64,000 nt of DNA, taken from Pyrodictiaceae archaeon (lineage in GTDB: Archaea; Thermoproteota; Thermoprotei_A; Sulfolobales; WANQ01). Both the position numbers and the translations under genes were made by a program. Under the pieces are notes generated by a model that worked only from the letters and a program-made list of their open reading frames with translations, had not been told where the DNA came from and did no database searches. Position 1 is the stretch's first letter. Each line of letters opens with the position of its first letter. The DNA lies in contig WANQ01000034.1 of NCBI GenBank assembly GCA_015521735.1, positions 10,201-74,200 of the forward strand. Direction: 5' to 3'. Positions 3,216 through 54,556 of the stretch are shown here, in pieces.

Positions 3216-3848
3216 TTATTGGCTTGCTTGCGCCTGTATTTCCTTTACTGCTTCGGGAGGCTTGAATGTTATCTGGTCTACGGGTTTAACCGGTTTAACT
3301 ATTGTTACTTCTACACCATATATTCCTGGCTTTAATAGTGCATGGGCTACAGCTCTATCAACCATTGTTTCTACTTGTTGGCCTACCTTGTAGACTCTAC
3401 CTGCTTTAATTTTCTCATAGCGTGCTCTTTCACTGGTAAGCTTACCGCTAATTACTATTTCTGCACCCAGTGCTCCAGCCGCCATTATTCTCCTTAGTGC
3501 TGCAAATGCTGCTCTTCTAAAGTGGTAGCCTCTTTCAAGCGCCATTGCTAGTCTGAATGCCATTATCCTAGCATTTAGTTCAGGGTTTTCAACGTTGGTT
3601 ACTGTTATCTGGGGGTTTTCTAAGCCAAAGTATTTTTCAAATATTTGTGCAAGTTGCTTTATTATTGCTCCTCTTCTACCTATTATTATGGCTGGTCTTT
3701 CAGCATATATTATTATCCTTGAGCCCAAGGGTGTTCTTTGTATATCGACTCCAGCATAGCCAGCTCTATAGAAGTTCTTAGCTAAGTATTCATCTATTGC
3801 TACTTTAACCATAGCTTTCTTGATAAAGTATTTCTTTATATTAACCAT
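3216..3848 (-). CDS. rps3: 30S ribosomal protein uS3
   Basis: 210-aa ORF with a KH-domain-like [12 protein letters not shown]. Position after uL22. Confidence 0.93.
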
Positions 3849-3850
3849 CT

Positions 3851-4324
3851 TTAGGATACCTCCTTTACTATTACCTCTACGTGGGAGAGCCTTCTAAATT
3901 TAGGTGTAGATCTACCAAAGGCTCGAGGCATCCATCTCTTAAGTATAGGGCCTTTATGTGATGCTATGTGTATTATTTTAAGCTTATCTGTGTTTAAATC
4001 CTTGTTTTCAGCATTGTTTTCAACGTTTTCTAGGAGCCTTAACAAGTACTTAGCAGCTTTTACAGGATACCTGCCTATAGGCCATTTCCACTTATCGGCT
4101 AATCCTTTTCTATGAGCTTGCTTACCCTTATACCTAAAGAATGGAACAGGCTCTTTCAACTCTATTACTCTTTTCAAATACTCTTTTGCTTCTTTTAACA
4201 TCATTCCTCTTATAGCTCTTGTAACCTCATACATTATCTTGGGAGATACCGGCACGTCCCACAATACTGCCTTAGCTATTTTCTCTTCTTCCCTAAACTT
4301 CACCGAGTAGTGCCAAGTCGGCAT
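3851..4324 (-). CDS. rpl22: 50S ribosomal protein uL22
   Basis: The ORF is open to 4363. An internal ATG at 4324 ([10 protein letters not shown]...) gives the usual ~157 aa and is preceded by a GGTGA Shine-Dalgarno-like motif. Confidence 0.9.
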
Positions 4325-18965: not shown

Positions 18966-19010
18966 TTAGTCACACCCATGCTACGCGGTATCAATGATAG
19001 ATTAGCGGGG

Positions 19011-19018
19011 CTTATAAA
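19011..19018 (-). promoter_or_regulatory. TATA-box candidate for the uL3-uL4-uL23 transcription unit
   Basis: The minus strand reads TTTATAAG, 46-53 nt upstream of the uL3 ATG (18965). Confidence 0.4.
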
Positions 19019-19720
19019 TGATGTTGTTTTACTAAGCAAACACACCCTATATCATTACATATGTTGCTTATAAGGAACCAGGACCCTTCTCTTTGCCCTA
19101 AGATAAGTTTATGTTTCCTTCCAATTCAAAACCTCATAACACTTATTAATTACTTTGCCTACTAATATCTAAGTTTTCCAAAAGTATAAGAATAAACATG
19201 AATGCCAAAATACTTATTACTATGACCTACCCTATTAGCTACATTTCAATTCAACGTCTATACTACTACAGTGTGCAATGTAATATGTGTTAACTTAGAG
19301 TTTTGGTTATAGAAAAAGCACACTGCTATGGTTATTCTTGGAACACCTTTGTATCCACACTCTATATAACTTATTGGGGACATACTGTAATTACACTAAT
19401 TACATTATCGTGATTTCTTCTTTCTTTCCTTGTTGCTTTCCTTTCTTTTTTCTATATTCATAAATAACGATGTCCTTTGTCTACCACCCATGTGGCATCT
19501 ACCTCAGCTATTAAAGCGATTATGTGTTGTATTCAAGTATCTTAGTACCTCACACATAGATATAAAAGATTTCATCACCTGAAATACCGTGCCGTTTTTA
19601 TCAGTGCTTGCACCCTTCATCATATGCATTCAGTATATTTTATTAATGACTTCTAGACTTAAGTGTTTTAGGTCTAATAGTCGTCTAATCTCTATTAATC
19701 TCTATCCAGGTGTATAACAT

Positions 19721-19984
19721 ATGGGTTTAAAGGAGGCATTTACTTGTAGAATATACCTTTCTAGTACTAGTCGTAATATTGTTGATAGTATAGTAAGCAA
19801 GATAATGAGTAAGTATAATGTTAATGTTAGGGTCAAAGAAAGCGTTAATGTTAGTGATTTTTACTTGATAGAGTTCACACTTGATAAACCAATTGATCAA
19901 AGAGATGTTGAAGAAATCCTTATCAACGAGGGATTAAGAAACTTTAACTTTAAGGTGGATGTACTGAAGGTTAAGGTCCCGTAG
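19721..19984 (+). CDS. Hypothetical protein (87 aa)
   Basis: Isolated ORF with an ATG start. No motif recognised. Confidence 0.4.
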   Translation: MGLKEAFTCRIYLSSTSRNIVDSIVSKIMSKYNVNVRVKESVNVSDFYLIEFTLDKPIDQRDVEEILINEGLRNFNFKVDVLKVKVP

Positions 19985-20175: not shown

Positions 20176-21945
20176 TTACTGTAGATTTCTAGTTCTGGTT
20201 CTTAAGTGTTTACTCTCTATGTTAACGTGGGACGCGTCTATCTTAACCCATATAAGGTTCTCCTCATCATGGAGTTTTACTAATGCTTCACCGACACCTA
20301 AATTCTTGTATCTTTGCCTCTCTTTTAATGACATTGGTACATACTCAATAACTTTATCTATGTATTCATCAGAGTTATAACTAAATAATACAAAGTTATT
20401 TGTGTTCTCTAGTACTTGTGGAGGCATATCTGTTAATAGTTGTGTTGATGCTATAACACCTATTCCGAGGCTTCTACCCTCTCTATATATTTTAGATAAC
20501 ATGAATATACTTTCATTACTCATTCTCCACGCCTCGTCTATTACTATTATTTTATTTGTTCCCAATTTCATGCCTAAACTACTATACATGGTTATGGTGA
20601 ATTCCTTAGCCAAGATTAATGATGCTAATAGTTGCTTTAGTTTCTCAGGATAACCTCTAAGAGATATCAATAATGCATTAGACGGTGTATAATTATTAAT
20701 GTTTATACCACCACTGTTTGTGTTTGATTCTTTATCTAATTCTCTTAACGCGTCAACAACTCCTATTAAACTATTGTCTAATTTAGAATACTTTTTAATT
20801 AGTGATAGTAATTGCTCTAAACTAATGTGCTTTGACAAGTTATGTAGACTCATTAAAGATCTATAAATATTATACCTTGCTGTATGGCTTAGCCTAAATA
20901 TTTCAGCAATTATATTTGAGACCTCCATAAACCACTTACTTATAATTTTTGGATTATCTATGTTAATATTTAACAATTCATTAAGATTTATACTAAGACC
21001 TTTTATCCCAATATTGTTTAATAAGTATATTAAATCTCCTTTAAAATCTATTACTACTACACTTACATCCCTATACGCCATTTGGGAAACAAGCAAAGCT
21101 AATAGAGTTGTTTTGCCTCTTCCCGTAGGTCCTGCTATGACGAAATGATTGATAATATGTTTCCTTAAGTCTATAAATACTGGTAGCTTGTTATCCATGT
21201 CAATTCCTATGTAAATACCATTATCGAGATTTTCTAATTCGAGTGAACTATAATTTGTTTTATTTACTGGAATAAATGCTCTTAGCGACTTGTCAAGTAA
21301 TACAATTGAGCGTTTACCCAGGATATACCTTTTATTATAGACTAGAGGCAATCCTATTAATTCATTTATGTTAACTCTTTTTAGATTAAGTCCTAGATAT
21401 TGTCTTACTACAATTGCTAAATTATGTTCTAGTCTATTGATTTCATTGGGTATTTCATCACACTTCCCATTCTTAACTATTACAAAGAGTATTGACACTC
21501 TCATAGGTAAATAGTTATTTGTTGTTACGTTTTCATAGATATTGCTTAGCAAGCGCAACTTACTTTGTAGACTAGGATTGTAGTTAAACTCCACCATAAA
21601 CGATAATCTATTGATTTCATTTTCTATTTTCTTAATTAATTTATCCTTAGGATAACGCTCAGTTATTATTATTAAATGAATATCAGGATATAGATAGAGT
21701 ATCTCAGATATTTTACTCACATAATTTAGTATGTACACGTCATCACTTGAAAGCAATGATAAAGGAATGTTTTTTAATGTTAGAATTGAGAAGCCGAAGC
21801 AAGTATTTTCATTGGTATTTTTAACTATGACCATGTTATCTTTTAATGTAACTACATTTGAAGTGAAATCTGAATTACTTTTGCTCTTCTTAATGATGTT
21901 ATGCTTAAATAACTTAATGATTTTTTCAAGTAACATTACTCTCAC
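20176..21945 (-). CDS. VirB4/HerA-superfamily ATPase, CedB-like (no TM segment)
   Basis: 589 aa. Walker A GPTGRGKT, Walker B KIIVIDEAWRM, and REGRSLGIGVIASTQ. Last gene of a tightly overlapped membrane-protein operon. Confidence 0.7.
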   Translation of the reverse strand: MRVMLLEKIIKLFKHNIIKKSKSNSDFTSNVVTLKDNMVIVKNTNENTCFGFSILTLKNIPLSLLSSDDVYILNYVSKISEILYLYPDIHLIIITERYPKDKLIKKIENEINRLSFMVEFNYNPSLQSKLRLLSNIYENVTTNNYLPMRVSILFVIVKNGKCDEIPNEINRLEHNLAIVVRQYLGLNLKRVNINELIGLPLVYNKRYILGKRSIVLLDKSLRAFIPVNKTNYSSLELENLDNGIYIGIDMDNKLPVFIDLRKHIINHFVIAGPTGRGKTTLLALLVSQMAYRDVSVVVIDFKGDLIYLLNNIGIKGLSINLNELLNINIDNPKIISKWFMEVSNIIAEIFRLSHTARYNIYRSLMSLHNLSKHISLEQLLSLIKKYSKLDNSLIGVVDALRELDKESNTNSGGININNYTPSNALLISLRGYPEKLKQLLASLILAKEFTITMYSSLGMKLGTNKIIVIDEAWRMSNESIFMLSKIYREGRSLGIGVIASTQLLTDMPPQVLENTNNFVLFSYNSDEYIDKVIEYVPMSLKERQRYKNLGVGEALVKLHDEENLIWVKIDASHVNIESKHLRTRTRNLQ

Positions 21946-22126
21946 CTTCTATTAAACGTATGTAGAAGAATATTGATGCTATCCCAATTATAATAACAAT
22001 AATGTGTAAGAACACTAGCCAAGTATCTTCATATTTGTTAATTGAAATAACATCAAATACCAGTACTAGCAGAAAGAATAAGGAAAAGATAAACGTCTTA
22101 TCAATATAGCGCTTCATGAATATCAT
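21926..22126 (-). CDS. Small two-TM membrane protein (CedA2/VirB3-like position)
   Basis: 66 aa with two hydrophobic helices. 4-nt overlap with the upstream gene and 20-nt overlap with the ATPase gene. Confidence 0.55.
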   Translation of the reverse strand: MIFMKRYIDKTFIFSLFFLLVLVFDVISINKYEDTWLVFLHIIVIIIGIASIFFYIRLIEGESNVT

Positions 22127-23568
22127 ACCCTAAATATAATTCTAGGAACTCGTGCTCCCAGAACATAGGCTAATCCATATGTTATCATAGTTAATAGTAT
22201 TATGTATGATGTAGGAAATATCAGCATTAATGCCATGAATATAAAGGCGGCTTGTCTAAGGACTTCATCTATGTCCCTACCTTCAGTTAATGTTTTAACA
22301 TATGGAACCTCTATGGATTCAGGTGGTTTTACTTGATTGGGAGAACCCACCAATTCTATTCTTAATAGACCTCTACTTTCATTTAATTCTGCATAGACCA
22401 TCCTTATTGTATTGCTATACCAATTAATCTTCTCAACAAAATACTTTACCGTAGTATTGTTGATTTTAACATCCAGTACATCTAGAGAATTAGGTAAAAG
22501 TAATATCTCATATACACCATTATAATTTAGCGATACATTTAATAGTACATTAATCTTGTTATTGTATTCCATAATTATAGGTATTCCATTATATGTTATT
22601 TTGGGATTACTCAGTACTATAATGCCCTTATAATATTTTAGGATGCCAGGTAGGGTTATTGATGCTTCTTGAAATGTGTTATGTATGACTCTCTCGGATT
22701 CTTTAAAATATTCAATAGGCTTAATGCTGCTTGGCGAAACAACAAAATTCAATCCATAATATTCTGCTTGCAATCTTACCTTAGGAAAAGCTGGAAATCC
22801 TTTATCAGGATAGGAAGCATAAATATAGCCATCGCTTTCAGATAGATACCTAGCTAACAAATTGCCTTGATCATCGTAAATGCTTAAGATAACAAAGGGT
22901 ATCCTATCACCTGCTATAGAACGTACTTCTATACGCGGAAACATCACTCCATACTCAATAAACAGCTTGAGCTTATCTGGAATTGTAGTAGGTATAGCCA
23001 TAAACATCATAAAATTAGGCATTAGTGGTAGACCTATGTAGAATACTATAGTGAATGCCAGTAGACTAGCACCTGCAACCCTAGTTATTCTAAAGGGTAT
23101 AGAGTAAAATAATATAGAAAGTGCTATCATTTTAGTTGCCGTATACCTTACTATAATACTTAATGTAATTATTAATGTTATAATTAATAGAGCATATGAT
23201 AGGAAACCTTTAATTGTGAATAATAGAGACGTGAAAGTATACATTTTAATATATGGTATTTTTGTCATTAATGTTAGAGAAACTTCTATAAATATTATGA
23301 ATACTAGTAGAAGTGCCCATAATGAGCCCGTGGTTAAGTCAAATGTTTCCCAGTCAGCTCCAAGTATTTCATACACATAGTTTATTATTATTATTATGTT
23401 GTTAAAGAATAGAGTTAAAGATGCTGCTAAGAGTCCATCAAATATTAATAAGGGAGCCCATCGTTTAATACCATACCATGGTATGGGTATTGCGTATATA
23501 AGTACACCTAAATAATATGTTAATACTGATAGTGCAAAAGCTGCATTAAGTACGGTATCTATGAACAT
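22123..23568 (-). CDS. Polytopic membrane protein with a large beta-rich extracytoplasmic insert (CedA/VirB6-like position)
   Basis: About 7 N-terminal TM helices, a ~220-aa hydrophilic beta-rich segment and a C-terminal TM pair. ATG 23568 (MFIDTV...) is preceded by AGAGGA; the ORF is open to 23616. Confidence 0.6.
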   Translation of the reverse strand: MFIDTVLNAAFALSVLTYYLGVLIYAIPIPWYGIKRWAPLLIFDGLLAASLTLFFNNIIIIINYVYEILGADWETFDLTTGSLWALLLVFIIFIEVSLTLMTKIPYIKMYTFTSLLFTIKGFLSYALLIITLIITLSIIVRYTATKMIALSILFYSIPFRITRVAGASLLAFTIVFYIGLPLMPNFMMFMAIPTTIPDKLKLFIEYGVMFPRIEVRSIAGDRIPFVILSIYDDQGNLLARYLSESDGYIYASYPDKGFPAFPKVRLQAEYYGLNFVVSPSSIKPIEYFKESERVIHNTFQEASITLPGILKYYKGIIVLSNPKITYNGIPIIMEYNNKINVLLNVSLNYNGVYEILLLPNSLDVLDVKINNTTVKYFVEKINWYSNTIRMVYAELNESRGLLRIELVGSPNQVKPPESIEVPYVKTLTEGRDIDEVLRQAAFIFMALMLIFPTSYIILLTMITYGLAYVLGARVPRIIFRV

Positions 23569-23581
23569 AGTGATATCCTCT

Positions 23582-23848
23582 TTACGGCATGGGTGGCTCT
23601 GGTAAAGGCATTGCAATCAACGACACAATATATGCCACTATTGAAAAGATGGTAGAGCCCATAGCAAGCCAAAAAGCTGCTAATACCGCATCTTCAACTA
23701 GATCCTGTCCTACCCTCTTGACACGCATAAATGGTATTGGCGAACCTTTAATAGCCCATCCTATAACCCATGAAAGAAAGAATAATACCCATGCTATTGT
23801 TGCTATTTGAAACGTTATATTTCTTATTAAATCAATTATGTCACTCAC
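23582..23848 (-). CDS. Small hydrophobic helix-hairpin protein (CedA1/VirB2 pilin-like)
   Basis: 88 aa, GTG start. Two hydrophobic helices (ATIAWVLFFLSWVIGWAI and AVLAAFWLAMGSTIFSIVAYIVSLIA) are joined by a basic loop. First gene of the operon. Confidence 0.5.
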   Translation of the reverse strand: MSDIIDLIRNITFQIATIAWVLFFLSWVIGWAIKGSPIPFMRVKRVGQDLVEDAVLAAFWLAMGSTIFSIVAYIVSLIAMPLPEPPMP

Positions 23849-23927
23849 TATACCCCCACTAAATCGTTATTAGCTTATAAAACGTCACGTACTAACAAGT
23901 AAATAAGGCTCTAGTAGGTGAGGAACA

Positions 23928-25961
23928 GTGAAATGGCCTAAGATAGTGAACATGTACTGGTGCCCCAACTGCAATGTACCAGTACTGTCGAGTACTTGTC
24001 CTAAATGCGGATCAAAAACAATACAATTAAAATTACCACCACCAGGTGATGCTAGACTAGCATTTAAACACGACATACTTAGAATAAATACTCTTCTTGA
24101 AAGGTACTTTAATACAAGAATAGATAAGTTATTTAAGGGAAACAATATCGTATTATTATCAAAGGAGCCTTACATAGATGAAAGGAGAGTTGTAATAGTT
24201 TCAGGAGTAAATATAGGTTCTATCTATTTTAACCCATACTTATATACCGACATGTTTAAACCATCTCCATTACTAGCACATTTATTAATAAATAATAATA
24301 TTACTGATCCCATAAAATTAAATAATGATTATAAAATAGGTGATCTAGTAAGAATAGAAAATAATAGAGATGTAGTCATTGGTATAACTAATAGCTATGT
24401 ATACGTATTAATGAAGGTTAACGAAGGCTTATATAGAGTTAAGGATAAGTCTCCACTAAATGTTCTAGATCGACAATTAGATAAACTTACAAGCATAGAC
24501 AAAAATAATACCCTACAAACAGTAGTTACTGTAAATGAACCGTTTCTACTAAGATATGTATCTGTAAGTGAAGCCTTCATATACTCGATGCACAATAAAA
24601 TTAATAAAACAATCGTATCCTTTTCTGGAGGAAAAGATAGTTTAACAGTACTCCACTTAACACTTGATGCAGGCATAGAACCCGAAGTAGTGTTTAATAA
24701 TACTGGTATAGAATTGCCGGAAACAATTGAAACCGTCTACAATACTATAGAGGAATTCGATTTAAAACTACACATTGCGGATGCTGGAGATCGTTTCTGG
24801 AAAGCAGTTAAGACCTTTGGACCCCCAGCTAGAAACTATCGATGGTGTTGTAAGGTAGTAAAATTAGTTCCATTTGCAAGATTAGCTAAAAGTACCTGGA
24901 AGTATAATGCATTGAATATACTAGGTCAAAGAAGTTATGAATCCTACGATAGGGCTAGAAGTCCAAGGGTTTGGAGAAATAAGTGGGTACCCAATGTACT
25001 TTCAGCTGCTCCCATTCAAGACTGGCCTCAATTCCTGGTATGGCTGTACATATTTAAGAATAAGCTAGATAGTCTAGTAAACTCATTATACTTTAAAGGC
25101 TTCGAGCGAATAGGATGTTACTTATGCCCTGCTAGCTCACTTTACGAGTTCAGTGTTGTTGAGAAAACACATCCAGAGCTATGGGAAAAATGGAAAAAAG
25201 TACTTAGGTCTTTTGGATGTAGTGAGACCTGCATAAAATTAGGGCTGTGGCGATGGATAGGCCCAGCCTCAGTTAAGAAGCAGCTGATGTCAAAGTACAG
25301 AATAGCCTATAGCTGGGAACATGAGTATTCAAATATTATCCCATTAAAAATAAAAAAAGTTAACATCTCAGTGAAAGATAAAAGCATAGTATACACCTTG
25401 GTATTTGACAAACATATTTCAGCACATAGATTTAAGAAACAAGCATCAATTCTCCGATTAAAAGCCAAGGATGAAAAAGTACTCGAAAACAGTAAGTTAA
25501 GAGTAGAAATACAAGGCAATAAGTTAAAACTCACCATCAATGAAACCAAGGAATCACTAGCTTTTGAAACCATGTTAGACGTACTAAAAATACTATATAG
25601 AGCCCAAAACTGTGTAGGATGTGGTAGTTGTACTCTTTGGTGCCCCACAAACGCTATAAGAATAAGCAACGAGAATTACCCAGTGGTAGACACCAAAAAA
25701 TGTATATCCTGTAAAATATGTATACATGAGTGCCCTATAGCTGAATTGATTGTGGATAAACTAATTGCAAGCCTCATACTTAAGAGATATGATGGTTGGA
25801 GAAGAGAAGGTAGGGTAGAGAGTAAAAAGAAGATAGACAACACGATAAAACTATTAGCTGTAATTAAAAGTGCTACATATAGGGATGCTAAAAGTGAGAA
25901 ACCTAGTAGCGATACTGATTATTCTAATATTATCATTAATTTTGATAGAATTGATGCCTAA
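23928..25961 (+). CDS. PP-loop / PAPS-reductase-family protein with an N-terminal zinc ribbon (plus PUA-like region) and a C-terminal 2x[4Fe-4S] ferredoxin domain
   Basis: CPNC..CPKC ribbon; SFSGGKDSLTVLHL PP-loop; NYRWCCKVVKL and GCYLCP motifs; CVGCGSCTLWCP and CISCKICIHECP clusters. Confidence 0.8.
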   Translation: MKWPKIVNMYWCPNCNVPVLSSTCPKCGSKTIQLKLPPPGDARLAFKHDILRINTLLERYFNTRIDKLFKGNNIVLLSKEPYIDERRVVIVSGVNIGSIYFNPYLYTDMFKPSPLLAHLLINNNITDPIKLNNDYKIGDLVRIENNRDVVIGITNSYVYVLMKVNEGLYRVKDKSPLNVLDRQLDKLTSIDKNNTLQTVVTVNEPFLLRYVSVSEAFIYSMHNKINKTIVSFSGGKDSLTVLHLTLDAGIEPEVVFNNTGIELPETIETVYNTIEEFDLKLHIADAGDRFWKAVKTFGPPARNYRWCCKVVKLVPFARLAKSTWKYNALNILGQRSYESYDRARSPRVWRNKWVPNVLSAAPIQDWPQFLVWLYIFKNKLDSLVNSLYFKGFERIGCYLCPASSLYEFSVVEKTHPELWEKWKKVLRSFGCSETCIKLGLWRWIGPASVKKQLMSKYRIAYSWEHEYSNIIPLKIKKVNISVKDKSIVYTLVFDKHISAHRFKKQASILRLKAKDEKVLENSKLRVEIQGNKLKLTINETKESLAFETMLDVLKILYRAQNCVGCGSCTLWCPTNAIRISNENYPVVDTKKCISCKICIHECPIAELIVDKLIASLILKRYDGWRREGRVESKKKIDNTIKLLAVIKSATYRDAKSEKPSSDTDYSNIIINFDRIDA

Positions 25962-27828
25962 TCTAACTAGCTTAGCTAATTTCTATAAATACATTGATTT
26001 AACGTTACTACTATCTTTAATAATAGTACCAGCAGTCATAATTGTAGCATTAGCAACTATAATATGTGAAAGCATAATATTACCTGTCTTAACAATAGTC
26101 GTAATGGCCTTTTATGCAATATTAAGTGGGTTGCAAATGCAATCAACTATGAATAACATTATGCAAAGCACACCAATATTGACTATTTTCAAAGATTTGA
26201 TTCCATTAGATAAACTTAGTCTTGCATTAAGGGTCACTCCTCTAATACTTTTAGCAATAGCAATAGCTGCTGGTATAGCATACAAAGTATTAATTGCAAA
26301 AATTAAGGATAAAACCATAGAAGATAAACTGCTAACAATATTACAACTAATGATAAAACATGGTAAATTCAGGGGTAAGAGAATAAGTGTTACTGAAATA
26401 GTTCATAATATTACCATGCTCTTATCCATACTATTTCTAATAGGTTACGTATTAGTAAAGGTGGGATTGAAGAATACTACAATTGATATATTAACCTTTC
26501 TACCCTTATCCTTAATATTCATTACCTACCTGACTATTCTGGGAAACAAATCCCTAATCACAAATATAATTATTCTAATGTCTTCATGGATGTCTCCAAT
26601 ACTTTTCTTAGCAAGCATACTTGATTTTTGGAGAACCTTTGAAACTACATACTTAGAGCCTTTACACTTTCGTGAAGGAGTACGTTTAGGTTTAATAAAA
26701 GCATTGCTTACACAAGGTGAAGGCAAGGAGTACAACGCCGTATCACATTTCAAAGATCGAGTAATAGTATCATCAACAACAAAGTGGAAATGGGTAGAAG
26801 TTAACAAAGATTATTATTTTGACCCTTATAAGCAGGTAAACCCTCATGTAATGATAAGTGGTACAAGTGGTAGCGGAAAATCATTTACAACAGCAATTAT
26901 GCTAGCTAAAATGTATACAGAACTAGATATAGGATACCTAGTAATAGACTTTCACGGAGAATACTTAGATAAATTAAAAACCATAGGATTGAAGTATATC
27001 AACTATATTAATGCATTACATAATACTATAAACCTATTAGACCTTGAAGGTCAGCCACCAAATCTAAGAGCAAGTGAAATAGCTGACGTAGTAAAAAATC
27101 TATTTAACTTAGGGCCCTTACAAAGACTAATACTACAAAAAGTACTTGAAGAAGCCTATGCTTTAGCAGAAATAACAGACGATCCCAGCACATGGAATAA
27201 AACCGTGAAGAGTTCACACGTAATACAGGCTTACAGAAAACTCCTATCAATGACTGAAAATGAACAAGAACTAAGAGTGTTAAAGAGCTTAGAACCATAT
27301 ATAAAAACTATATCATCAAGCATAATAACCCAATCAAAAATCAACATATCAGAACTATTAAGTAGACCCACAATACTCGATCTATCACACATACCTAGCA
27401 TATTCATAAAAAGACTTTATGTTAGTGCACTACTAATGAAAATATACTACAATCTACCTAGGATAAAGCCGAGTAGACTAACGTACATAGTAATTGATGA
27501 AGCACATAGAGTAATTAAAGAAAATGAAGATGTATTAGTTAAATTATTCGCTGAAAGCCGAAAATATAATATAGGTTTAATAATAGTAACCCAAAATCCC
27601 AAAGATATACCTAACAACATAGTATCAAATACATCACTACAAATATTCTTAAAGCTAGTAGAACCCTCAAATATAGAATACGCTGCTAAAATTTTAGGAG
27701 GATACTCTTCAAATGATAGAATAGATCATATAAAAAGAGCTCTATACTACCTACCCCAATACCATGGCATTGTAAAGGATAGTTTAATTAGGGAGCCGCT
27801 AATCGTTGATCTAACGTGGAGATCTTAG
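25954..27828 (+). CDS. Membrane-anchored HerA/FtsK-superfamily (DUF87-like) ATPase
   Basis: About 250-aa N-terminal multi-TM domain, then Walker A ISGTSGSGKS, LVIDFHGEY, Walker B YIVIDEAHRV and ESRKYNIGLIIVTQNP. ATG 25954 overlaps the upstream stop; the ORF is open from 25870. Confidence 0.75.
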   Translation: MPNLTSLANFYKYIDLTLLLSLIIVPAVIIVALATIICESIILPVLTIVVMAFYAILSGLQMQSTMNNIMQSTPILTIFKDLIPLDKLSLALRVTPLILLAIAIAAGIAYKVLIAKIKDKTIEDKLLTILQLMIKHGKFRGKRISVTEIVHNITMLLSILFLIGYVLVKVGLKNTTIDILTFLPLSLIFITYLTILGNKSLITNIIILMSSWMSPILFLASILDFWRTFETTYLEPLHFREGVRLGLIKALLTQGEGKEYNAVSHFKDRVIVSSTTKWKWVEVNKDYYFDPYKQVNPHVMISGTSGSGKSFTTAIMLAKMYTELDIGYLVIDFHGEYLDKLKTIGLKYINYINALHNTINLLDLEGQPPNLRASEIADVVKNLFNLGPLQRLILQKVLEEAYALAEITDDPSTWNKTVKSSHVIQAYRKLLSMTENEQELRVLKSLEPYIKTISSSIITQSKINISELLSRPTILDLSHIPSIFIKRLYVSALLMKIYYNLPRIKPSRLTYIVIDEAHRVIKENEDVLVKLFAESRKYNIGLIIVTQNPKDIPNNIVSNTSLQIFLKLVEPSNIEYAAKILGGYSSNDRIDHIKRALYYLPQYHGIVKDSLIREPLIVDLTWRS

Positions 27829-43256: not shown

Positions 43257-46109
43257 TTACACAGAGCCTTTAAGTTTCTGTAGAAATGCTGCTCCATTAA
43301 GTGCTATGTAGGGTATTAAGTCTTTTGAGACATAGTAGTACTTGGGCGATAGTGATTGAAGAAGGCTCGACGATAGTGGTGTAACCTTAACTTCATATGC
43401 TTCGTCTACGGGTATCTTCTTCTTAAATCTCTCTACGTCTTCTAAAACCTCCTTAGGTGTAAAGTACACTGGAATATATGACTCACCGCTAGCAGGCTTT
43501 ATTTGTAGTAGGAATGCTTCATTTAGGTCACTAGGTGTAAAGGATTCACTAAAGATTTCGCTTGATACAATTACTTTAACATCTCTAGCCAATGCCCACC
43601 TCCATTCACCCAACTCTACATCAAGGAACTGGAATACTCTATCAATGCTACCAGGTTTTCTAAGTTCTTTGAGCTTATGTTCAATGGTTTTAGGAGGTAA
43701 ACCTGTTATCTCAGCTAACTCGTCTATAGTGAAAGCCATTCCATCAAGATTACGTACTATTACACCACTAACATCGGGAATCCATGGTCTTATCTCAGGC
43801 ATTCTCCTTAAATAGCCTGCAAGCGGTGAAAGTATCTTAGGTGACCCCAAGTCAACTATTTCCACTTCACCCCTCCTTAATGATTCTACGAACTTCTTTG
43901 CTCCTTCTACATCAAAGTAGTACTGAATAGTTTGTCTTAGCGCTTCTTTTGACAATAATGCATCATTGTCTTCATCTACCTTACCTATCTTACCAAAGCT
44001 TAACTGTAATTCCTTAAGCATTGCAGCATAAAGTGGTGATCTCCTAACAGCTTCATAGACCAATTTCTCTACATCAAGCTCAGTTAAGCTTTTCAGCAAT
44101 TCAACTACATCTATTCTACTGGTTCTTACGGAAAAACCGTAGAAAGCAGATCTTATTGCTACTTGAAGTGTATGTTTAGATGATACAAGATACATTAGCA
44201 TGTGGGCTATGGTGTTAGCTATACGTTCCCCTAAGAATACAGTAAAGAATACCTCATCTCCCATTCTTTCTACAATAATCCTACGAGTAGTTGGTATCGG
44301 TATACCCAGCTTCTTATAGACATTAACTAAACTAACAAGTCTTGATACAACATTGCTTGGTATCCTAATGTTTTCTGGAACATCTATGTAGCCTTTAGCC
44401 CATGCTTCTTCAAGTACTCTACTCGACTCTAATGCTATTATATTATCCCTTTTAACACCTTCACCTCTCCACAATGGAACCTCTGATTCACGTACATCAG
44501 CTTCAACTACATCTATTCTCATGAGGTTCTCGTCTATTGATACTACTCTCCAAGTCTTACCAGCAAGTCTAAATACATCACCTACACGTAGGTACTTGTA
44601 TACGTATACTGCATCAACATCACCTACAGTTTTATCATCATACTTGACTGTAAACGCTCTACGTTCACCTATAAATGAGAAGAATTCTGCAAAACTTCTC
44701 ATCCACCACCTTCTAACTCCTTCATCAAATCTCCATATCTTATAGAATACTGGGCCAAGTTTTATCTTTGAACCATTTCTCTCAATTACCTTCATCTGAC
44801 TTAAATACTTAATTAATTCATTGAATTCACTAACGGTTAAGTCTCTAAACGGGTATGATGCTTTGAGTATCTTGTAAGCATATTCTAAGTCCACTTCACC
44901 AAACTGAAGACACATTCCCATAAGTTCTCTTGCTGCAACATCGAGGGGTTTAGTTAGGGTTTTAGTTGGCTCAAGTTTTCTCCTAATCAGTAATCTTGCC
45001 GTAGCAATGGCTTCAAGAACGTCTACATCATCTAAGCAGATTACAGCGCCAATAGACTTATCTCCTATTCTATGTCCACTTCTACCAATTCGTTGTATAA
45101 GTGATGTAACTGATCCGGGGGGTCTAAACTGTATAACTGATTTCACACTTCCCAAATCTATTCCTAGTTCAAGAGTCTTAGTACATACAACTGTGTTAAC
45201 AATACCTTTTCTCAATAATTCCTCTGTTTCTTGTCTAACTTCCCTTGAAACAGATGAGTGGTGTACTGCTACTCCCTTTACACCCATTTTTTCTATAGCT
45301 TCATGTAAGCGTTCAGCAGTAAACCTAGAGTTGACGAACACTAGCGATGGTGGATCCACATGCTTTAATATCACTTTAACTGCATTACTCCAAAGTTCAT
45401 CATTTGATCCATACTCTACATAGTCTATTCTCACCTCGAAATCCTTTGCCTCCTTAACCTCAACTATTTCTCTAGGCCTCTTGGAAGAACCAAATATGAG
45501 ATTTGCAGCCTCCTCCGGACTACCAATAGTAGCTGATAACCCTATTACTTGGAAATCTTTACCAGTAATCTCTCTAAGTCTCTCTAAGAGAACTGCTAAC
45601 TGTACACCACGTTTCGTACCTACAAGTTCATGTACTTCATCCACTATAACCCATCTAACATTTACATAATATTCACGAAATCTTGACGCCCAGTCGAGAT
45701 CTATTTCAAGGCTCTCAGGCGTTATTATGAGTATGTGTGGAACTTTCCTAAGCCTTCGTGCTCGCTCACTTTGCGGGACATCACCATGCTTTCTAGCTAC
45801 TATGAAACTTAGCTTATTAGCCCACCACTGAATCCTAATCATTAAATCATTGATGAGAGCCCGTAGTGGTGTTATATATAAGACTGCTATAGGTTCAACG
45901 TTTTCGTTAAGCATCATTGAGAGAACAGGTATTATAGCCGCCTCTGTTTTACCATAGCCTGTAGGAGCTATTATCAACGTGTTATAGCCTTTGAGAATAC
46001 TAGGTATGCCTTTAATCTGAGGTAGAGTGAGGTCATTCCATCCACGTAACCGTATAAGTTCCCTCACCTTAGGATGCAGCAAACCTAGTATTTCATCACC
46101 ATTACCCAT
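43257..46109 (-). CDS. lhr: Lhr-type (large helicase-related) SF2 ATP-dependent DNA helicase
   Basis: 950 aa. IIAPTGYGKTEAAIIP, VIVDEVHEL, TKTLELGIDLG and IQRIGRSGHR, followed by a long Lhr-like C-terminal extension. Confidence 0.85.
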   Translation of the reverse strand: MGNGDEILGLLHPKVRELIRLRGWNDLTLPQIKGIPSILKGYNTLIIAPTGYGKTEAAIIPVLSMMLNENVEPIAVLYITPLRALINDLMIRIQWWANKLSFIVARKHGDVPQSERARRLRKVPHILIITPESLEIDLDWASRFREYYVNVRWVIVDEVHELVGTKRGVQLAVLLERLREITGKDFQVIGLSATIGSPEEAANLIFGSSKRPREIVEVKEAKDFEVRIDYVEYGSNDELWSNAVKVILKHVDPPSLVFVNSRFTAERLHEAIEKMGVKGVAVHHSSVSREVRQETEELLRKGIVNTVVCTKTLELGIDLGSVKSVIQFRPPGSVTSLIQRIGRSGHRIGDKSIGAVICLDDVDVLEAIATARLLIRRKLEPTKTLTKPLDVAARELMGMCLQFGEVDLEYAYKILKASYPFRDLTVSEFNELIKYLSQMKVIERNGSKIKLGPVFYKIWRFDEGVRRWWMRSFAEFFSFIGERRAFTVKYDDKTVGDVDAVYVYKYLRVGDVFRLAGKTWRVVSIDENLMRIDVVEADVRESEVPLWRGEGVKRDNIIALESSRVLEEAWAKGYIDVPENIRIPSNVVSRLVSLVNVYKKLGIPIPTTRRIIVERMGDEVFFTVFLGERIANTIAHMLMYLVSSKHTLQVAIRSAFYGFSVRTSRIDVVELLKSLTELDVEKLVYEAVRRSPLYAAMLKELQLSFGKIGKVDEDNDALLSKEALRQTIQYYFDVEGAKKFVESLRRGEVEIVDLGSPKILSPLAGYLRRMPEIRPWIPDVSGVIVRNLDGMAFTIDELAEITGLPPKTIEHKLKELRKPGSIDRVFQFLDVELGEWRWALARDVKVIVSSEIFSESFTPSDLNEAFLLQIKPASGESYIPVYFTPKEVLEDVERFKKKIPVDEAYEVKVTPLSSSLLQSLSPKYYYVSKDLIPYIALNGAAFLQKLKGSV

Positions 46110-46246
46110 GTTAAACCCACCGCTTAGACCGTTAGCATATACTGTTTACCGCCACATACCTTACAGACACTATACAACCATAGCGTTATCCTATCACCCA
46201 CACCCTTTAAAAAGCCTAACGGGTACCCAGCACTAGGGATAGCTAA

Positions 46247-46489
46247 TTGACTGAGAAATACACGTGCATTACATGTGGTAGAAAATTCCCCAAAGGCCAA
46301 GGAGTCATAGTAGAAGTAGGGAAAACAATACTAACATTCCACAGCACTAGATGTGCAACAAAATTCTTTAAACTACTCATAGAAAGAGTAGAAAACAAGG
46401 ATATCATTGAAAGAGCTGCACGACAACTGATAAGAGAACTCAATGAGCAGAGAATGAAAATAGAGGAAGTAAAGAGGAAGAAAATATAG
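46247..46489 (+). CDS. Small zinc-ribbon protein (L24e/TRASH-like N-terminus)
   Basis: 80 aa, TTG start. YTCITCGRKFPKGQGVIVEVGKTILTFHSTRCATKF. TATA-like CTTTAAAAAG lies about 40 nt upstream. Confidence 0.45.
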   Translation: MTEKYTCITCGRKFPKGQGVIVEVGKTILTFHSTRCATKFFKLLIERVENKDIIERAARQLIRELNEQRMKIEEVKRKKI

Positions 46490-46526
46490 ACTCTAGTACC
46501 TACACTTATGTAATAGAGCCCAGTTA

Positions 46527-46586
46527 GGCGATGAAGACTGTGGCGGTCTCAGATGAATAGATGAAGACTTAGGAGCCCACTGAGCC
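46527..46586 (+). ncRNA. Box C/D-like sRNA candidate (weaker)
   Basis: GGC/GCC terminal pairs, C-like GCGAUGA, D CUGA (46580-83), and an internal 10-nt duplication GAUGAAGACU marking C and C'. 60 nt. Confidence 0.35.
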
Positions 46587-46752
46587 TAAAACCATTGGAT
46601 ACAATTGATATCATTTATGATAAGTTTCTCCTACTTAGTTCACTAATCAAGGAATACATCAAGAAATATTGTCATGCTGTCCTCCGAAGAGGTTAACTAC
46701 ATTATCTTCGCGAGGTAGGAGAGGCTATTAGGATCAAGAAAAAGAGAATTTA

Positions 46753-47652
46753 ATGCAATGGCTGGGATTTGAACCCGGGACCTCCGGCGTGGCAGGCCGG
46801 CGTCCTAGTCCAGGCACGACGACCGCTGTTAAACAGGAGTTAACTACGCAACTAAGAGGTCTACCGATGCCAGAGATAGATAACGAGCTTCTGGAGGGCT
46901 TCCGCAACTACTTGTTGAACAAGGTATCCGAGGATACGTTGAGAGACTATGTTAACGCTGTTGTGAAGCAAGAGTGGCCTCCCATTAAGCATAGCCATGT
47001 CAAGGCTTGGCGCAACTATGTCCAGTACTTGTTCAGTATAGGTAGGCTTAGCTGGGAGGAGAAGGCGAGGTACCTAGACTTCTTGAAGCTGCCAAGAAGT
47101 GAAAGGAAGGTAGAGGAAGAGGTACCTGTTCCACTTATAATTAAATACAAGGAGATAATACTGGGTAGCGAACTAGGAGACCTATACTACCTGCTACTAG
47201 GTGGAGCGAGGCTAGAACACCTTGTTAGAATGCTAGAATCTTATGCACCTGAAGAGGTTGTTAAACACCCTACTGGCAGGTTTGAGCCCCGATTATACTG
47301 TAGTAGACTATACTGTAGATACTACCTTGGTATCCGGAAGGGTAGTAAAAGAGTAGACTACATATACTTCCCAATAATATCCGATAGCCTCATGATACCC
47401 TGGATGACGTATCGTCAGCTACGCGATTACCTAAACAAGCGGCTAGGTATACGGGTCAAACTTTTTAGGAAATTTGTTAACCAGCGCCTTGAATCGCTTG
47501 CTGAACAATACAATATACGGCTAGACGCAGTCAACTTGATAATGAGTAGAGAACTCAGCGTTACAGGAGCACATTATCTGAATGTGAGGGACTGGGCGGA
47601 CAAACTGTTCAAGCTGTATGTTGAATGGTTGAGAAGAAACAAGTTAATCTAA
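46753..47652 (+). CDS. SSV-type tyrosine integrase, C-terminal (catalytic) fragment Int(C)
   Basis: The ORF begins inside attL (GFEPGTSGVAGRRPSPG, encoded antisense to the tRNA). It is the continuation of the Int(N) reading frame and has the integrase-like GGARLEHLVRML...GAHYLNVRDWADKLFKLY. Confidence 0.8.
   Translation: MQWLGFEPGTSGVAGRRPSPGTTTAVKQELTTQLRGLPMPEIDNELLEGFRNYLLNKVSEDTLRDYVNAVVKQEWPPIKHSHVKAWRNYVQYLFSIGRLSWEEKARYLDFLKLPRSERKVEEEVPVPLIIKYKEIILGSELGDLYYLLLGGARLEHLVRMLESYAPEEVVKHPTGRFEPRLYCSRLYCRYYLGIRKGSKRVDYIYFPIISDSLMIPWMTYRQLRDYLNKRLGIRVKLFRKFVNQRLESLAEQYNIRLDAVNLIMSRELSVTGAHYLNVRDWADKLFKLYVEWLRRNKLI
46764..46815. repeat. attL: 52-bp direct repeat (partial, non-functional copy of the tRNA-Gly 3' portion)
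   Basis: gggatttgaacccgggacctccggcgtggcaggccggcgtcctagtccaggc is identical to 54491-54542. Similarity continues imperfectly for about 11 more bp. The acceptor stem cannot form here. Confidence 0.95.
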
Positions 47653-47654
47653 AC

Positions 47655-48152
47655 TCAGCTCTTTTTCACTCTTGCATCTATCTCCTCGACCAGTTTCCCT
47701 ACTTGTCTAAGCGCAATTTCAACATCTCTCCTAGTGCACCAGGCTTCATAGAAGCATGTGTGCATGGAATTTGCGTGAGCCCATACATCGCTAATCCATT
47801 CTCCTAGCTCATCTACTAACTTGTCCTTATACAACCATAGTTCTCGGTGACTGGTTAGCCTTTTACCCTCCTTCCAGTAAGCATATGCTTTTACTGCTAG
47901 AGCACCTGCACCCCATACTTTCTCAGCAGCCTGACGTATATCCCCCTTCTCTAGCTCCTTCTTAGCTTCTTCAAGCAGCTCTTTAGCAGCATTAATGTAT
48001 TCTACTGCTCTGCTCTCCGGGTCAAGTTCTTTGACGATGAGTTCTACAACGTATTCTTCTAGGCTGAGGCCGAGTTGCTCGGCAAGCCTTCTAGCATGCT
48101 CAGCAAGATTGCGGGGTATACTAATAGACACCGCCATAACCCAGGACACCAC
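47655..48152 (-). CDS. RHH (CopG-like) domain fused to a PaREP1-family (HEPN-related) domain
   Basis: N-terminal ISIPRNLAEHARRLAEQLGLSLEEYVVELI. PaREP1 pattern ELLEEAKKELEKGDIRQAAEKVWGAGALAVKAYA...RLTSHRELW. Confidence 0.7.
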   Translation of the reverse strand: MVSWVMAVSISIPRNLAEHARRLAEQLGLSLEEYVVELIVKELDPESRAVEYINAAKELLEEAKKELEKGDIRQAAEKVWGAGALAVKAYAYWKEGKRLTSHRELWLYKDKLVDELGEWISDVWAHANSMHTCFYEAWCTRRDVEIALRQVGKLVEEIDARVKKS

Positions 48153-48518
48153 ACCTACTATAATATGGTATAGCAGGTTATATTATATGTTAGGTGCATG
48201 TACAACTAGTAGGAGGTGCCAATTCTTTCTCCCCGACGTGACCTGCAGTATGGAGGGATGGTATACTGAGGACAAGGGGAGGAGGAAGCAGGAGCAAGTA
48301 GCAGGATTCTTGCTTGAACGCCAACTATTCTTTCACGTTACCTACGTAAAGAATAGCCAACAGAAGTAGATATGCTAGCAAACTCTTTCCAGCCACAAAA
48401 GAATTGAGTTCACCCATTATCTGAGAAGAGTGTATTTCTGTAGGGTGTGTTCTTATAGTTAACGAGGTGTGCTTGATGAGTGGTGATAATAAAGGAGTAG
48501 ACAATGAGGGTGCATCAA

Positions 48519-48638
48519 GGTTCATCAGCTCTCCTATTATTATATAAGAGTACTTCACTGTACTACTCTGATATATAATAATAGGAAACTTGATGAACCC
48601 ATTCCAACCCCAAGCATGACTGGGGGTTCATCAGCTCT
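48519..48638. repeat. Iteron-like repeats in the element's 590-bp non-coding region
   Basis: 14-bp direct repeat GGTTCATCAGCTCT at 48519-48532 and 48625-48638. Inverted repeat TGATGAACCC (48591-48600) / GGGTTCATCA (48624-48633). A related TTGATGAG lies near 48473. Confidence 0.75.
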
Positions 48639-48742
48639 GAAGGAGCAAGAAGAAGCCTGGACAGAGTACATCAGCCAGAGTTAATTGCGTGCACGGCCAA
48701 GAGCTCTATTACCTATAAAGAGAATAAAGAAGACAGCTTAAC

Positions 48743-50593: not shown

Positions 50594-50949
50594 TCCCCTC
50601 CTTCCACCCCCTCATTCTCTTTCGGGAGGTTGCATCAACACTTCTTTACACGTCTATTCTCACACAAAACAGCTATTTAAGGTGTGCGGTTTACCGTCTG
50701 AGTCTCTATATCCTTATATTCAATTTTCCTATGAGGAGATTATCAATAAACTTATTAGCAAATTATTGGGGGATACGAGACTATATGTTGAGGCTCTTAG
50801 AGTTCTAGCAGGAGTCATAGCATCTAGAAACAAGTACTCTAAGACAACAGTAGAAGTTGCCAAGGAAATACTGAGAACACTAGACGAAGCCACCACTCCT
50901 CACCTAAACTGGAAGACACTAATACACTAGTTCTAATAGCATAGTAATA

Positions 50950-51327
50950 ATGTGGGAGATGGTAGTAGTGTTCAAGGCTAGGAGGGGGTTGGAGGACTGG
51001 GAGAAGCCTCTACTAGCAGGAGCATTGTATATGGTTGACCCACGACCCGAGGAAGAGGTTTTCAGGGAAATGGTGGAGCTTGTTGGATTGGAGATGGCTG
51101 AGCGGATAGCTAGTCTCGTATGGAGGATGTGTTTCGGGGAAGGCTATAGTCTTGAAGAGTGGGCTAGTATACTAGAGAAGCTGAGAACACTGTCTCCATG
51201 GGAGTGTATTTGGAGGTTCCAGGAACTAGTTGAAGGAGGGCTTAGGAGGAGACATGAAGTGGAACCAGCAAGGATAAACCCAGTAGAGTTGCTGAGAACA
51301 GCTTGTAAGCTACTAGGACTAGGCTAG
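50950..51327 (+). CDS. Hypothetical protein (125 aa), element-borne
   Basis: GC-rich ORF inside the integrated element. No motif recognised. Confidence 0.45.
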   Translation: MWEMVVVFKARRGLEDWEKPLLAGALYMVDPRPEEEVFREMVELVGLEMAERIASLVWRMCFGEGYSLEEWASILEKLRTLSPWECIWRFQELVEGGLRRRHEVEPARINPVELLRTACKLLGLG

Positions 51328-51427
51328 TGGTTACCCGCTACTAGTATCCTTAATGCTATGTATAATGCTAGGGCTATGGTAGGCGTCGTCAATAATAGTG
51401 TACTGGCTTGTTTAAGAAACACTAGTG

Positions 51428-52933: not shown

Positions 52934-53021
52934 ACAATAATATGTAAAAGTAATAGCGGGTAACAGTTATTCCAAGTTATAGAATACGTGAGGAGAGAAA
53001 AAAGCTTAACCCCGAAGGAGG

Positions 53022-54071: not shown

Positions 54072-54170
54072 TATGTTACAACATTCTCTTATTTATGCCA
54101 ATGTATTCTTGGCCGTGGATGACGTGAGGTTTTTCAGGGTAGGTAAGAGTTAACTACAATCAGGTGCATA

Positions 54171-54545
54171 GTGGTGAGGCAGGTATCTACTAGACTAGGC
54201 GGTGCAAGGTTGACCCTTGTCGTGAAGCACATCAAGGGAAAACTATACGTATACGATGAGTTCCGTGACCCTGTGACCAGGAAAGTTCAGACAATATACA
54301 TAGGCCCATTAGAGGAGATGGCTAGAGTATACCAGTTGTACAAGTCCTTAGGCAAGGTGGAGAAATTAACGAAACGCGACCTAAGACGCCTCGCCAGAAT
54401 TCTCTTGGAGGAATATGTTAGAAGGGTCGAACAGGTAGTTAAATCCAAGAAGCCTGAAGGAGAACCTATTGGAAAAGTGGTGCGGCGGCCGGGATTTGAA
54501 CCCGGGACCTCCGGCGTGGCAGGCCGGCGTCCTAGTCCAGGCTAG
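54171..54545 (+). CDS. SSV-type integrase, N-terminal fragment Int(N)
   Basis: 124-aa ORF ending inside attR with ...RRPGFEPGTSGVAGRRPSPG, the same peptide that starts Int(C). It reads antisense through tRNA-Gly. Confidence 0.8.
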   Translation: MVRQVSTRLGGARLTLVVKHIKGKLYVYDEFRDPVTRKVQTIYIGPLEEMARVYQLYKSLGKVEKLTKRDLRRLARILLEEYVRRVEQVVKSKKPEGEPIGKVVRRPGFEPGTSGVAGRRPSPG

Positions 54546-54556
54546 ACGACCGCCGC
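54478..54556 (-). tRNA. tRNA-Gly (anticodon GCC), CCA encoded
   Basis: Manual fold of the minus strand: acceptor GCGGCGG/CCGCCGC, D arm GUCU..GGAC, anticodon stem CCGGC/GCCGG with loop CUGCCAC, T arm CCGGG-UUCAAAU-CCCGG, discriminator A plus CCA, then a T-run. Confidence 0.92.
54491..54542. repeat. attR: 52-bp direct repeat inside the intact tRNA-Gly gene
   Basis: Identical to 46764-46815. Confidence 0.95.

Follow-up and report, generated by a model that had tools for sequence, protein, structure and literature searches.

An archaeal relative of the bacterial conjugation systems, the Ced (Crenarchaeal exchange of DNA) system is to our knowledge alone among known machines in importing chromosomal DNA from one archaeal cell into another. 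Nearly all of the functional Ced work that we know of comes from Sulfolobales, whose CedA is a short form of the protein. Here we analysed a stretch of 64,000 nucleotides (hereafter the window) from a Pyrodictiaceae archaeon (contig WANQ01000034.1, positions 10,201 to 74,200), in which four open reading frames (ORFs) packed tightly on the minus strand at 20176–23848 had been read in an original prediction as a chromosomal DNA-transfer operon of the Ced type. We conclude, with a probability of roughly 85%, that the locus is a chromosomal Ced system made up of a cedA1-cedA-cedA2-like-cedB operon and a divergent pair of genes for a PAPS-reductase-like protein and a CedD-like ATPase.

The genetic evidence for chromosomal DNA import and for its induction by DNA damage has been obtained in Sulfolobales only, where both CedB and CedD are needed for import (PMC11823120, PMC11868833). 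CedD combines a membrane domain with an ATPase (PMC11868833, PMC11823120), CedB and CedD have been placed in the HerA clade, and the Ced system of Saccharolobus islandicus also includes CedE (PMC11868833). Ups genes occur in Sulfolobales alone, and Sulfolobus has so far not been seen to make Ced pili (PMC11823120). Aeropyrum pernix, a member of Desulfurococcales, has no Ups and forms true Ced pili; these are narrow, VirB2-like polymers of CedA1 with lipids, and their lumen accommodates single-stranded DNA (ssDNA) (PMC9905601).

Identity of the operon genes and the CedD-like ATPase

The arrangement of the four genes was read directly from the sequence and agrees with the earlier description of coupled minus-strand genes, down to the 13-nucleotide gap, the overlaps of 4 and 20 nucleotides and the two ATPase motifs. 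The first gene, cedA1 (23582–23848), starts with GTG and encodes a predicted VirB2-like Ced pilin of 88 residues. Between its TAA stop codon and the ATG of cedA lies the 13-nucleotide spacer AGAGGATATCACT; cedA (22123–23568) encodes 481 residues from this ATG, the longest ORF giving 497 residues from a TTG, and its product corresponds to a long form of the VirB6-like platform protein. The next junction is an ATGA, a 4-nucleotide overlap between cedA and the gene for a 66-residue, two-helix membrane hairpin (21926–22126), which in turn overlaps the CedB-like ATPase gene (20176–21945) by 20 nucleotides if the latter starts at a GTG (589 residues) or by 11 nucleotides if it starts at the ATG at 21936 (586 residues), the start picked by gene callers in sister contigs. 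A TATA-like element, TTTTATAA (23875–23882, minus strand), could be read 27 nucleotides upstream of the cedA1 GTG; it is a candidate archaeal promoter, from which the operon transcript would be nearly leaderless. A scan of the locus for bacterial promoters and terminators was uninformative, the host being an archaeon.

The 88-residue protein scored 122.9 bits against the NCBIfam model NF041797 (Ced_CedA1) and passes its cut-off of 100, and in a phmmer search of the Protein Data Bank (PDB) its residues 2–78 matched 8DFU, the A. pernix Ced pilus, with an E-value (E) of 5.6e-24. By hydropathy it contains two hydrophobic helices; its N-terminus, MSDIIDLIRN, has no signal-peptide features, and its basic residues (K, R, K, R) sit in the loop, which has a net charge of about +2. 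On these matches we identify it as the CedA1 pilin of the Ced system.

The 481-residue protein matched NCBIfam NF041796 (Ced_CedA) with an E of 9e-40 over residues 5–192 and a second stretch. Its hydropathy profile shows five or six hydrophobic helices in residues 1–192, a hydrophilic segment at 195–435 and one further helix at about 438–472, so that hydropathy agrees with the polytopic protein of about 480 residues, and with the two-helix proteins of 88 and 66 residues, that had been described. A full-length AlphaFold2 model reached a predicted local distance difference test score (pLDDT) of 85; it renders residues 107–156 as a single 50-residue helix, and the number of membrane crossings in the core is ambiguous. 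In a joint alignment the membrane core of long CedA is collinear with Sulfolobaceae CedA, and sequence comparison shows the N-terminus to be homologous to CedA1; when the CedA profile was run against PDB sequences, the 8DFU pilin was the sole match (E 2.7e-4). This N-terminal likeness to CedA1 has already been published (PMC9905601). From family match and alignment, we assign the 481-residue protein as CedA. An identical protein is encoded on contigs of the metagenome-assembled genomes GCA_027017985.1 and GCA_015520285.1, with a 98% identical copy in GCA_054032475.1, and the nearest relatives in the species-representative genome set belong to uncultured Desulfurococcales.

The operon ATPase carries the Walker A motif GPTGRGKT and the Walker B motif IIVIDEAW and has no N-terminal membrane helix. 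Its best match in NCBIfam is DNA_import_CedB (E 1.3e-22, residues 7–562 on model positions 36–579 of 590), with CedD in second rank. The repair helicase model NF040819 (helicase_HerA) gave 24 bits against a cut-off of 970 over about 65 residues around the P-loop, and the VirB4 model TIGR00929 gave 25 bits against a cut-off of 643, likewise confined to the P-loop surroundings. The match to CedB, a homology foreseen in the original prediction, extends over the full length of the protein, although far below the cut-off. Pfam assigns it to DUF87/HerA. A word-indexed search with the CedB alignment returned only unnamed, 'ATP-binding' or 'DUF87' proteins of Desulfurococcales and no Sulfolobales CedB, and we know of no CedB structure for comparison. 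By the ranking of its family matches, we consider the operon ATPase to be probably a diverged CedB.

A second ATPase, which the original prediction had overlooked, is encoded 2 kb upstream of cedA1 on the opposite strand (25954–27828, plus strand; 624 residues from an ATG, with the longest ORF starting at 25870). Its best NCBIfam match is CedD (E 9e-31, 107 bits; CedB 78 bits), and its hydropathy profile shows about six membrane segments in residues 1–253 followed by an ATPase of the HerA/VirB4 clade. The ATPase domains of the CedB-like and CedD-like proteins are 25% identical, and the two assign reciprocally, one best to CedB and the other best to CedD.

A scan of one genome per species yielded 63 loci (designated by L numbers), in which we called ORFs and searched with the window proteins; the 56 species loci counted here are those with a full-length cedA and at least 400 nucleotides downstream. 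The taxa represented are Desulfurococcales, Acidilobaceae, Caldisphaera, Pyrodictiaceae, Thermodiscus, Ignisphaera and Ignicoccus. In the 56 species loci cedA encodes 450–528 residues (longest-ORF calls), cedA1 lies directly upstream of it in nearly all (it was not detected in L053 and L064), cedB follows downstream in 42, and a two-helix ORF of 52–76 residues starts at the cedA stop codon in 28. Both small genes of the original prediction thus recur beside cedA in other genomes. In 13 loci, the near-identical relative L001 among them, a CedD-like gene is found no more than 10 kb upstream of cedA1. Ignisphaera-type loci (L026, L031, L039, L047–L050, L056, L058 and L067) contain cedA1, a long cedA and the small ORF with no cedB within 700 nucleotides; their cedB must be elsewhere, as in Sulfolobales. 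Among close relatives all four operon genes are under purifying selection, with ratios of nonsynonymous to synonymous substitution rates (dN/dS) of 0.00–0.04 for cedA1, 0.03–0.12 for the whole of cedA (0.03–0.05 for its membrane core), 0.2–0.4 for the 66-residue gene and 0.10–0.13 for cedB. Because the arrangement recurs and is under purifying selection, the four genes are real and not chance ORFs. As to the order cedA1-cedA-cedA2-cedB, which had been proposed as the crenarchaeal layout, the placing of cedB beside cedA is seen in Desulfurococcales and Acidilobales but does not hold for Sulfolobus acidocaldarius, whose Ced genes we take to be Saci_0567–0569 (cedA being saci_0568), Saci_0748 for CedB and Saci_0667 for CedD, and in which saci_0748 is far from saci_0568 by locus tag.

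The Ced locus lies between ribosomal-protein genes and the PCNA gene, and the flanking and window genes include those for ribosomal proteins L3, L4 and L23, PCNA, XPB, reverse gyrase and Lhr, a housekeeping set which identifies the stretch as chromosomal DNA of a hyperthermophilic archaeon. The same gene order is found in the relatives L071 and L072, where the synonymous divergence (dS) of cedA from the window is 0.9–2, near saturation; synteny at such a distance points to vertical inheritance and not to a mobile element. With the pilin above its cut-off and matching 8DFU, the collinear core of CedA, the best match of the ATPase to CedB and these housekeeping flanks, the chromosomal Ced-type operon of the original prediction is upheld.

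The extended form of CedA

The beta-rich insert that had been noted between membrane bundles of CedA lies between the penultimate and the last membrane helices (residues 195–435; 22264–22986, minus strand). Modelled alone with AlphaFold2, it folds into two consecutive beta-sandwich domains with a pLDDT of 91.9 and a predicted template modelling score (pTM) of 0.88. Across the CedA family, positive charge is conserved at loops 28–38, 102–112 and 141–164 and in the C-terminal tail, and the N-terminus and loop 70–80 are acidic; by the positive-inside rule, the helix before the insert therefore leads out of the cell and the last helix back in. The insert carries 2.4 N-X-S/T sequons per 100 residues, compared with 10 in about 4,550 residues elsewhere, and in one clade the number reaches 11–12 per protein. 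Loop charges and sequons thus agree with the extracytoplasmic placement suggested before, and the insert, hereafter the ectodomain, is probably extracellular and glycosylated.

The description of this CedA as unusually elaborated did not survive comparison. When 1.84 billion cluster representatives were searched exhaustively with a profile, 249 CedA relatives came up, and of the best 150, from which lengths were taken, 109 are at least 440 residues long and match end to end, and 25 measure 240–310 residues. The short entries that we looked up are from Sulfolobaceae, the proteins named 'DNA import protein CedA' by NCBI having 260–263 residues; the long ones are called 'hypothetical protein' and come from Desulfurococcales and Acidilobaceae. 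About 235 residues in long CedA replace a sequon-rich loop of about 25 residues in Sulfolobaceae CedA, and the insert is, as had been supposed, foreign to the short Sulfolobus protein. Long CedA is thus the standard form outside Sulfolobales, occurring in the non-Sulfolobales taxa sampled, with the short form in Sulfolobaceae. The ectodomain is conserved on CedA yet unrecognized by public annotation, and our literature search found no account of it.

Foldseek matched the ectodomain to the tandem Ig-like domains of the Gram-positive pilins BcpA, SpaA and SpaD (E 3e-5 to 6e-4, template modelling (TM) score about 0.3), and otherwise to the N-terminal domain of LTA4 hydrolase, the S-layer protein SlaB and parts of phage tail fibres; with the full CedA model, the beta-sandwich part dominated the matches. 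As these matches are generic Ig-like folds, no specific function can be assigned to the ectodomain from them, and the receptor or cell-contact role put forward in the original prediction is conjectural. In all pairs compared, divergence is quicker in the ectodomain than in the core (mean identity 28% versus 45%), and the second sandwich is the most variable part. The dN/dS of the ectodomain is 0.07–0.12, which shows it to be clearly constrained, and values of 0.07–0.16 reject diversifying selection at the level of the gene average.

The 66-residue protein, the divergent genes and the flanks

The 66-residue protein consists of two hydrophobic helices joined by a short polar loop. We found no family match for it in Pfam or NCBIfam, and none to VirB3; the Pfam scan was also blank for CedA1 and CedA, the copy searched being one without PF27251 'CedA1'. 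In the literature, CedA2 is described as poorly conserved outside Sulfolobales (PMC9905601) and A. pernix as being without it (PMC11868833). In the Saccharolobus locus L069, an unannotated gap after cedA, at the expected position of CedA2, contains a 51-residue two-helix ORF (3801–3956), to which a profile built from the small ORFs of Desulfurococcales gave 17 bits. Among the controls, 2000 shuffles gave at most 11.4 bits and two-helix ORFs not adjacent to cedA at most 7.3, and every decoy above 7.3 bits proved to sit directly after a cedA. These proteins are short and hydrophobic, which limits firm homology from profile scores; position and score together suggest that the 66-residue protein is very probably the counterpart of CedA2. 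The CedA2-like gene is more widespread than the published text suggests, and annotation in public assemblies seems to pass over small Ced genes.

The presence of the small ORF was compared with that of a membrane helix in CedB at the 42 loci with an adjacent cedB. The small ORF is present in 12 loci where CedB has no membrane helix and in 5 where it has one, and absent in 1 locus of the former kind and 24 of the latter; the two features tend to exclude each other, with six exceptions and a p value of 6e-6 in a Fisher test that ignores phylogeny. Among the exceptions, L009 (11634–13520) and L010 (10559–12442) encode a CedB with two N-terminal membrane helices, preceded by a CedA2-like ORF, and L008 has neither the small ORF nor a CedB membrane helix. 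This exclusion hints at a VirB3-like tethering role for the 66-residue hairpin. R388 VirB3, itself a membrane protein of two helices, binds VirB4 and contacts VirB6 (PMC9259494). The equation of CedA2 with VirB3 in the original prediction finds no support in the literature, where CedA2 is proposed to be a VirB2-like minor pilin (PMC11823120) and archaea are said to have no VirB3 (PMC11868833), and our data add only the hints of gene position and anchor complementarity. Most of the small ORFs adjoining cedB have a basic C-terminal tail and a short polar loop; the window protein is basic near its N-terminus (K5, R6, K10) and has an acidic C-terminal tail (EGESNVT). We also considered whether the small protein could be a simple split-off CedB anchor, an idea weakened by its two helices versus one in anchored CedB, by its presence beside anchored CedB in five loci and by its occurrence after cedA in Ignisphaera loci without an adjacent cedB.

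Divergent from cedA1 lies the gene for the 677-residue PAPS-reductase-like protein (23928–25961, plus strand), which shares 8 nucleotides with the start of the cedD-like gene. The protein has an N-terminal zinc ribbon and a C-terminal 4Fe-4S dicluster, and matches Pfam PAPS_reduct (E 1e-38) and Fer4 domains as well as NCBIfam PRK13795, a 'hypothetical protein'. Its gene adjoins cedA1 divergently in 12 species loci (L006, L009–L012, L014–L016, L018, L019, L053 and L064), Ignicoccus pacificus among them; it may encode an unrecognized Ced partner, or the linkage may merely be an old conserved gene order. Between the PAPS-reductase-like gene and cedD, L009 (3449–6253) and L016 (4481–7297) carry a gene for an Lhr-type helicase of about 935 residues; the Lhr gene of the window is located at 43257–46109 on the minus strand, about 15 kb further along.

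On the other side of the operon, a gene at 19721–19984 (plus strand), convergent with cedB, encodes an 87-residue soluble protein of unassigned function and occupies the same position in L001, L006, L008 and L071. Next to it lies an ORF-poor gap of 755 nucleotides (18966–19720), about 90% identical, with indels, to the corresponding gap of a sister genome. The gap bears C/D-box-like motifs (TGATGA ... CTGA) and a weak match to Rfam sR3 at 19599–19654 on the minus strand (E 0.14, 16.8 bits against a gathering score of 41), and it may hold a C/D-box small RNA. A decayed copy of the methyltransferase gene that L071 carries at this position was sought in the gap and no remnant was found. Past 46 kb (46000–64000) the G+C content climbs from about 34% to about 42%, and this part of the window contains three tRNA genes (Gly-GCC twice and Glu-TTC).

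Alternatives, mechanism and relation to known systems

Several observations weigh against the assignment of the locus as a Ced system, or against the roles that we propose for its parts. The orthology of CedA, CedB and CedD rests on best-match ranking, collinearity and synteny, and all three proteins score far below the equivalog cut-offs of their models, with 137 bits against 330 for CedA (NF041796), 80 against 700 for CedB and 107 against 600 for CedD. The low CedA score arises because the insert splits the match, so that only the flanks align. More generally, the short proteins that NCBI names CedA are all from Sulfolobaceae, which suggests that the NCBIfam models for CedA, CedB and CedD reflect Sulfolobales sequences. 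In the PDB, the CedB profile is nearer to HerA (4D2I, E 4e-20) than to VirB4 (4AG5, E 1.6e-7), which is compatible with the CedB assignment because CedB itself is published as a member of the HerA clade (PMC11868833). VirB6 was absent from the matches of the CedA profile to PDB sequences; the published HHpred route to VirB6 runs only via TedA (PMC9905601). Foldseek searches of the PDB and of viral structures with full CedA and with the ectodomain gave generic folds only (E 1e-5 to 1e-3, TM score about 0.2–0.35), the dN/dS of the ectodomain is far below 1 and gives no sign of a rapidly diversifying recognition surface, and the small ORF is tied to cedA no less than to cedB, as would be expected of a minor pilin. 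We know of no DNA-transfer assay for any member of Desulfurococcales, and what is said of transfer direction and induction is an extrapolation.

The locus could in principle be an integrated conjugative element or a plasmid-derived type IV secretion system (T4SS) exporting its own DNA, like the pNOB8-type plasmids of Sulfolobus. The parts do resemble those of a T4SS (VirB2-, VirB6- and VirB4-like), two HerA/FtsK-type ATPases show weak TraG/TrwB matches in Pfam, and the G+C content of the locus (31–34%) is a little under that of its flanks. However, no integrase, relaxase or replication gene was found within 10 kb and no tRNA gene is adjacent, the pilin is orthologous to the chromosomal Ced pilin of A. 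pernix, and the persistence of the ribosomal-protein/PCNA synteny in near-saturated relatives largely refutes this explanation, which we consider extremely improbable. We judge just as improbable that the ATPase serves repair or defence as a helicase of the HerA type and merely adjoins membrane-protein genes, the cluster then being no DNA-transfer machine. DUF87/HerA is indeed its top Pfam match, and the top PDB matches of its family profile are HerA proteins, an anti-phage HerA included; but CedB is published in that same clade (PMC11868833), and the match to repair HerA covers a short segment at less than a third of the 80 bits that CedB reaches along the whole protein. Furthermore, the ATPase gene shows translational coupling with the cedA2-like and cedA genes and stays in synteny with cedA1 and cedA across 42 species, and no NurA, Mre11, Rad50 or defence partner lies nearby or among the four other neighbouring proteins scanned (neighbours were identified by their own matches for the PAPS-reductase-like and CedD-like proteins and through precomputed Pfam results of the related L001 for the ribosomal-protein genes).

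A further explanation, unlikely but a more serious competitor than these two, accepts the Ced parts and gives them another job, such as DNA export, two-way transfer or a constitutive adhesive or contact pilus, with the ectodomain as an adhesin or S-layer anchor. CedA1 and CedE of Sa. islandicus are needed for export too (PMC11868833), A. pernix Ced pili form without UV treatment (PMC9905601), and the ectodomain is built like pilin or adhesin modules. On the other hand, import is the sole direction shown for CedA, CedB and CedD (PMC11823120, PMC11868833), and the published pilus has a lumen wide enough for ssDNA (PMC9905601). Nothing in our analysis counts directly against this explanation.

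For the Ced system as we read it, the mechanism is extrapolated from the work in Sulfolobales and A. pernix, our own contribution being the identities of the parts, their conservation and their linkage. CedA1 and lipids would form a narrow VirB2-like pilus with a lumen that fits ssDNA, on a VirB6-like membrane platform of CedA from which the pilin would be extracted and through which the DNA would pass, and hexameric CedB and CedD ATPases would power assembly and DNA translocation, probably import. In bacteria, stalk and contact are provided by VirB5 and the periplasmic domain of VirB6. We infer that the outward-facing beta-sandwiches of CedA could build a collar or a stalk where the pilus begins, or else provide the surface that meets the partner cell, and that the module may have become dispensable in Sulfolobales through reliance on Ups pili; the 66-residue hairpin could tie the anchorless CedB to the membrane platform. 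It is tempting to speculate, although we doubt that all of it holds, that the ectodomain supplies the extracellular part missing from archaeal machines of the conjugation kind (as an oligomeric collar, stalk or tip which nucleates the CedA1 pilus and contacts the partner), that the hairpin is a VirB3-like tether and that the PAPS-reductase-like protein is a DNA-processing partner. If so, the ectodomain would replace bacterial VirB5 and, functionally, the Ups pili, which would explain why Ced pili are seen in the Ups-less A. pernix and not in Sulfolobales, and a CedA2-type hairpin would be needed where CedB has no membrane helix.

Our results leave the picture of what the Ced system is unchanged, the system being already known. 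They indicate that in the non-Sulfolobales sampled (Desulfurococcales, Acidilobaceae, Pyrodictiaceae and Ignisphaera) the platform normally bears a conserved, probably glycosylated extracellular module, and that counterparts of all five Ced components can share one locus, in an arrangement that includes cedD and also a coupled PAPS-reductase-like gene, and they offer targets for structural work on the pilus base.

Compared with bacterial T4SS, the locus has in common a VirB2-like, lipid-bound pilin, a VirB6-like platform with a pilin-like N-terminus, a VirB4-like ATPase and, at the virB3 position, a small two-helix protein encoded just before the ATPase. It differs in having no outer-membrane core, VirB5, VirB8, VirB11 or relaxase, in an ATPase nearer to HerA by sequence and in a platform whose profile does not detect VirB6; the published direction of Ced transfer is import, and the 66-residue protein is without the cytoplasmic helix with which VirB3 of R388 wraps VirB4 (PMC9259494). 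The Ted system of Thermoproteales (TedC, TedA, TedB and TedD) follows the same logic and also has its CedD/TedD-type ATPase clustered with the other genes (PMC11823120). In contrast to the CedA1-type pilin found here, its pilin TedC loses a signal peptide by cleavage and does not resemble CedA1 in sequence (PMC9905601).

The Ced system of Sulfolobales shares with the window the gene order cedA1-cedA-cedA2-like (L069), a homologous and collinear CedA membrane core and, by best family match, the paralogues CedB and CedD. Its CedA, in contrast, has 260–263 residues and the short loop in place of the insert, its CedB is described as membrane-bound whereas the one here has no membrane helix, cedB and cedD of S. 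acidocaldarius are unlinked from cedA by locus tag whereas they are clustered here, and cell contact is made there via Ups pili (PMC11823120). With the Ced system of A. pernix, the window shares a pilin that matches 8DFU and is also unprocessed, without a signal peptide, and the cedA1-cedA-cedB cluster recurs in the Desulfurococcales and Acidilobaceae loci. The window differs from the A. pernix system, in which CedA2 is published as absent (PMC11868833), by its CedA2-like gene and by the presence of a cedD-like gene within the same locus.

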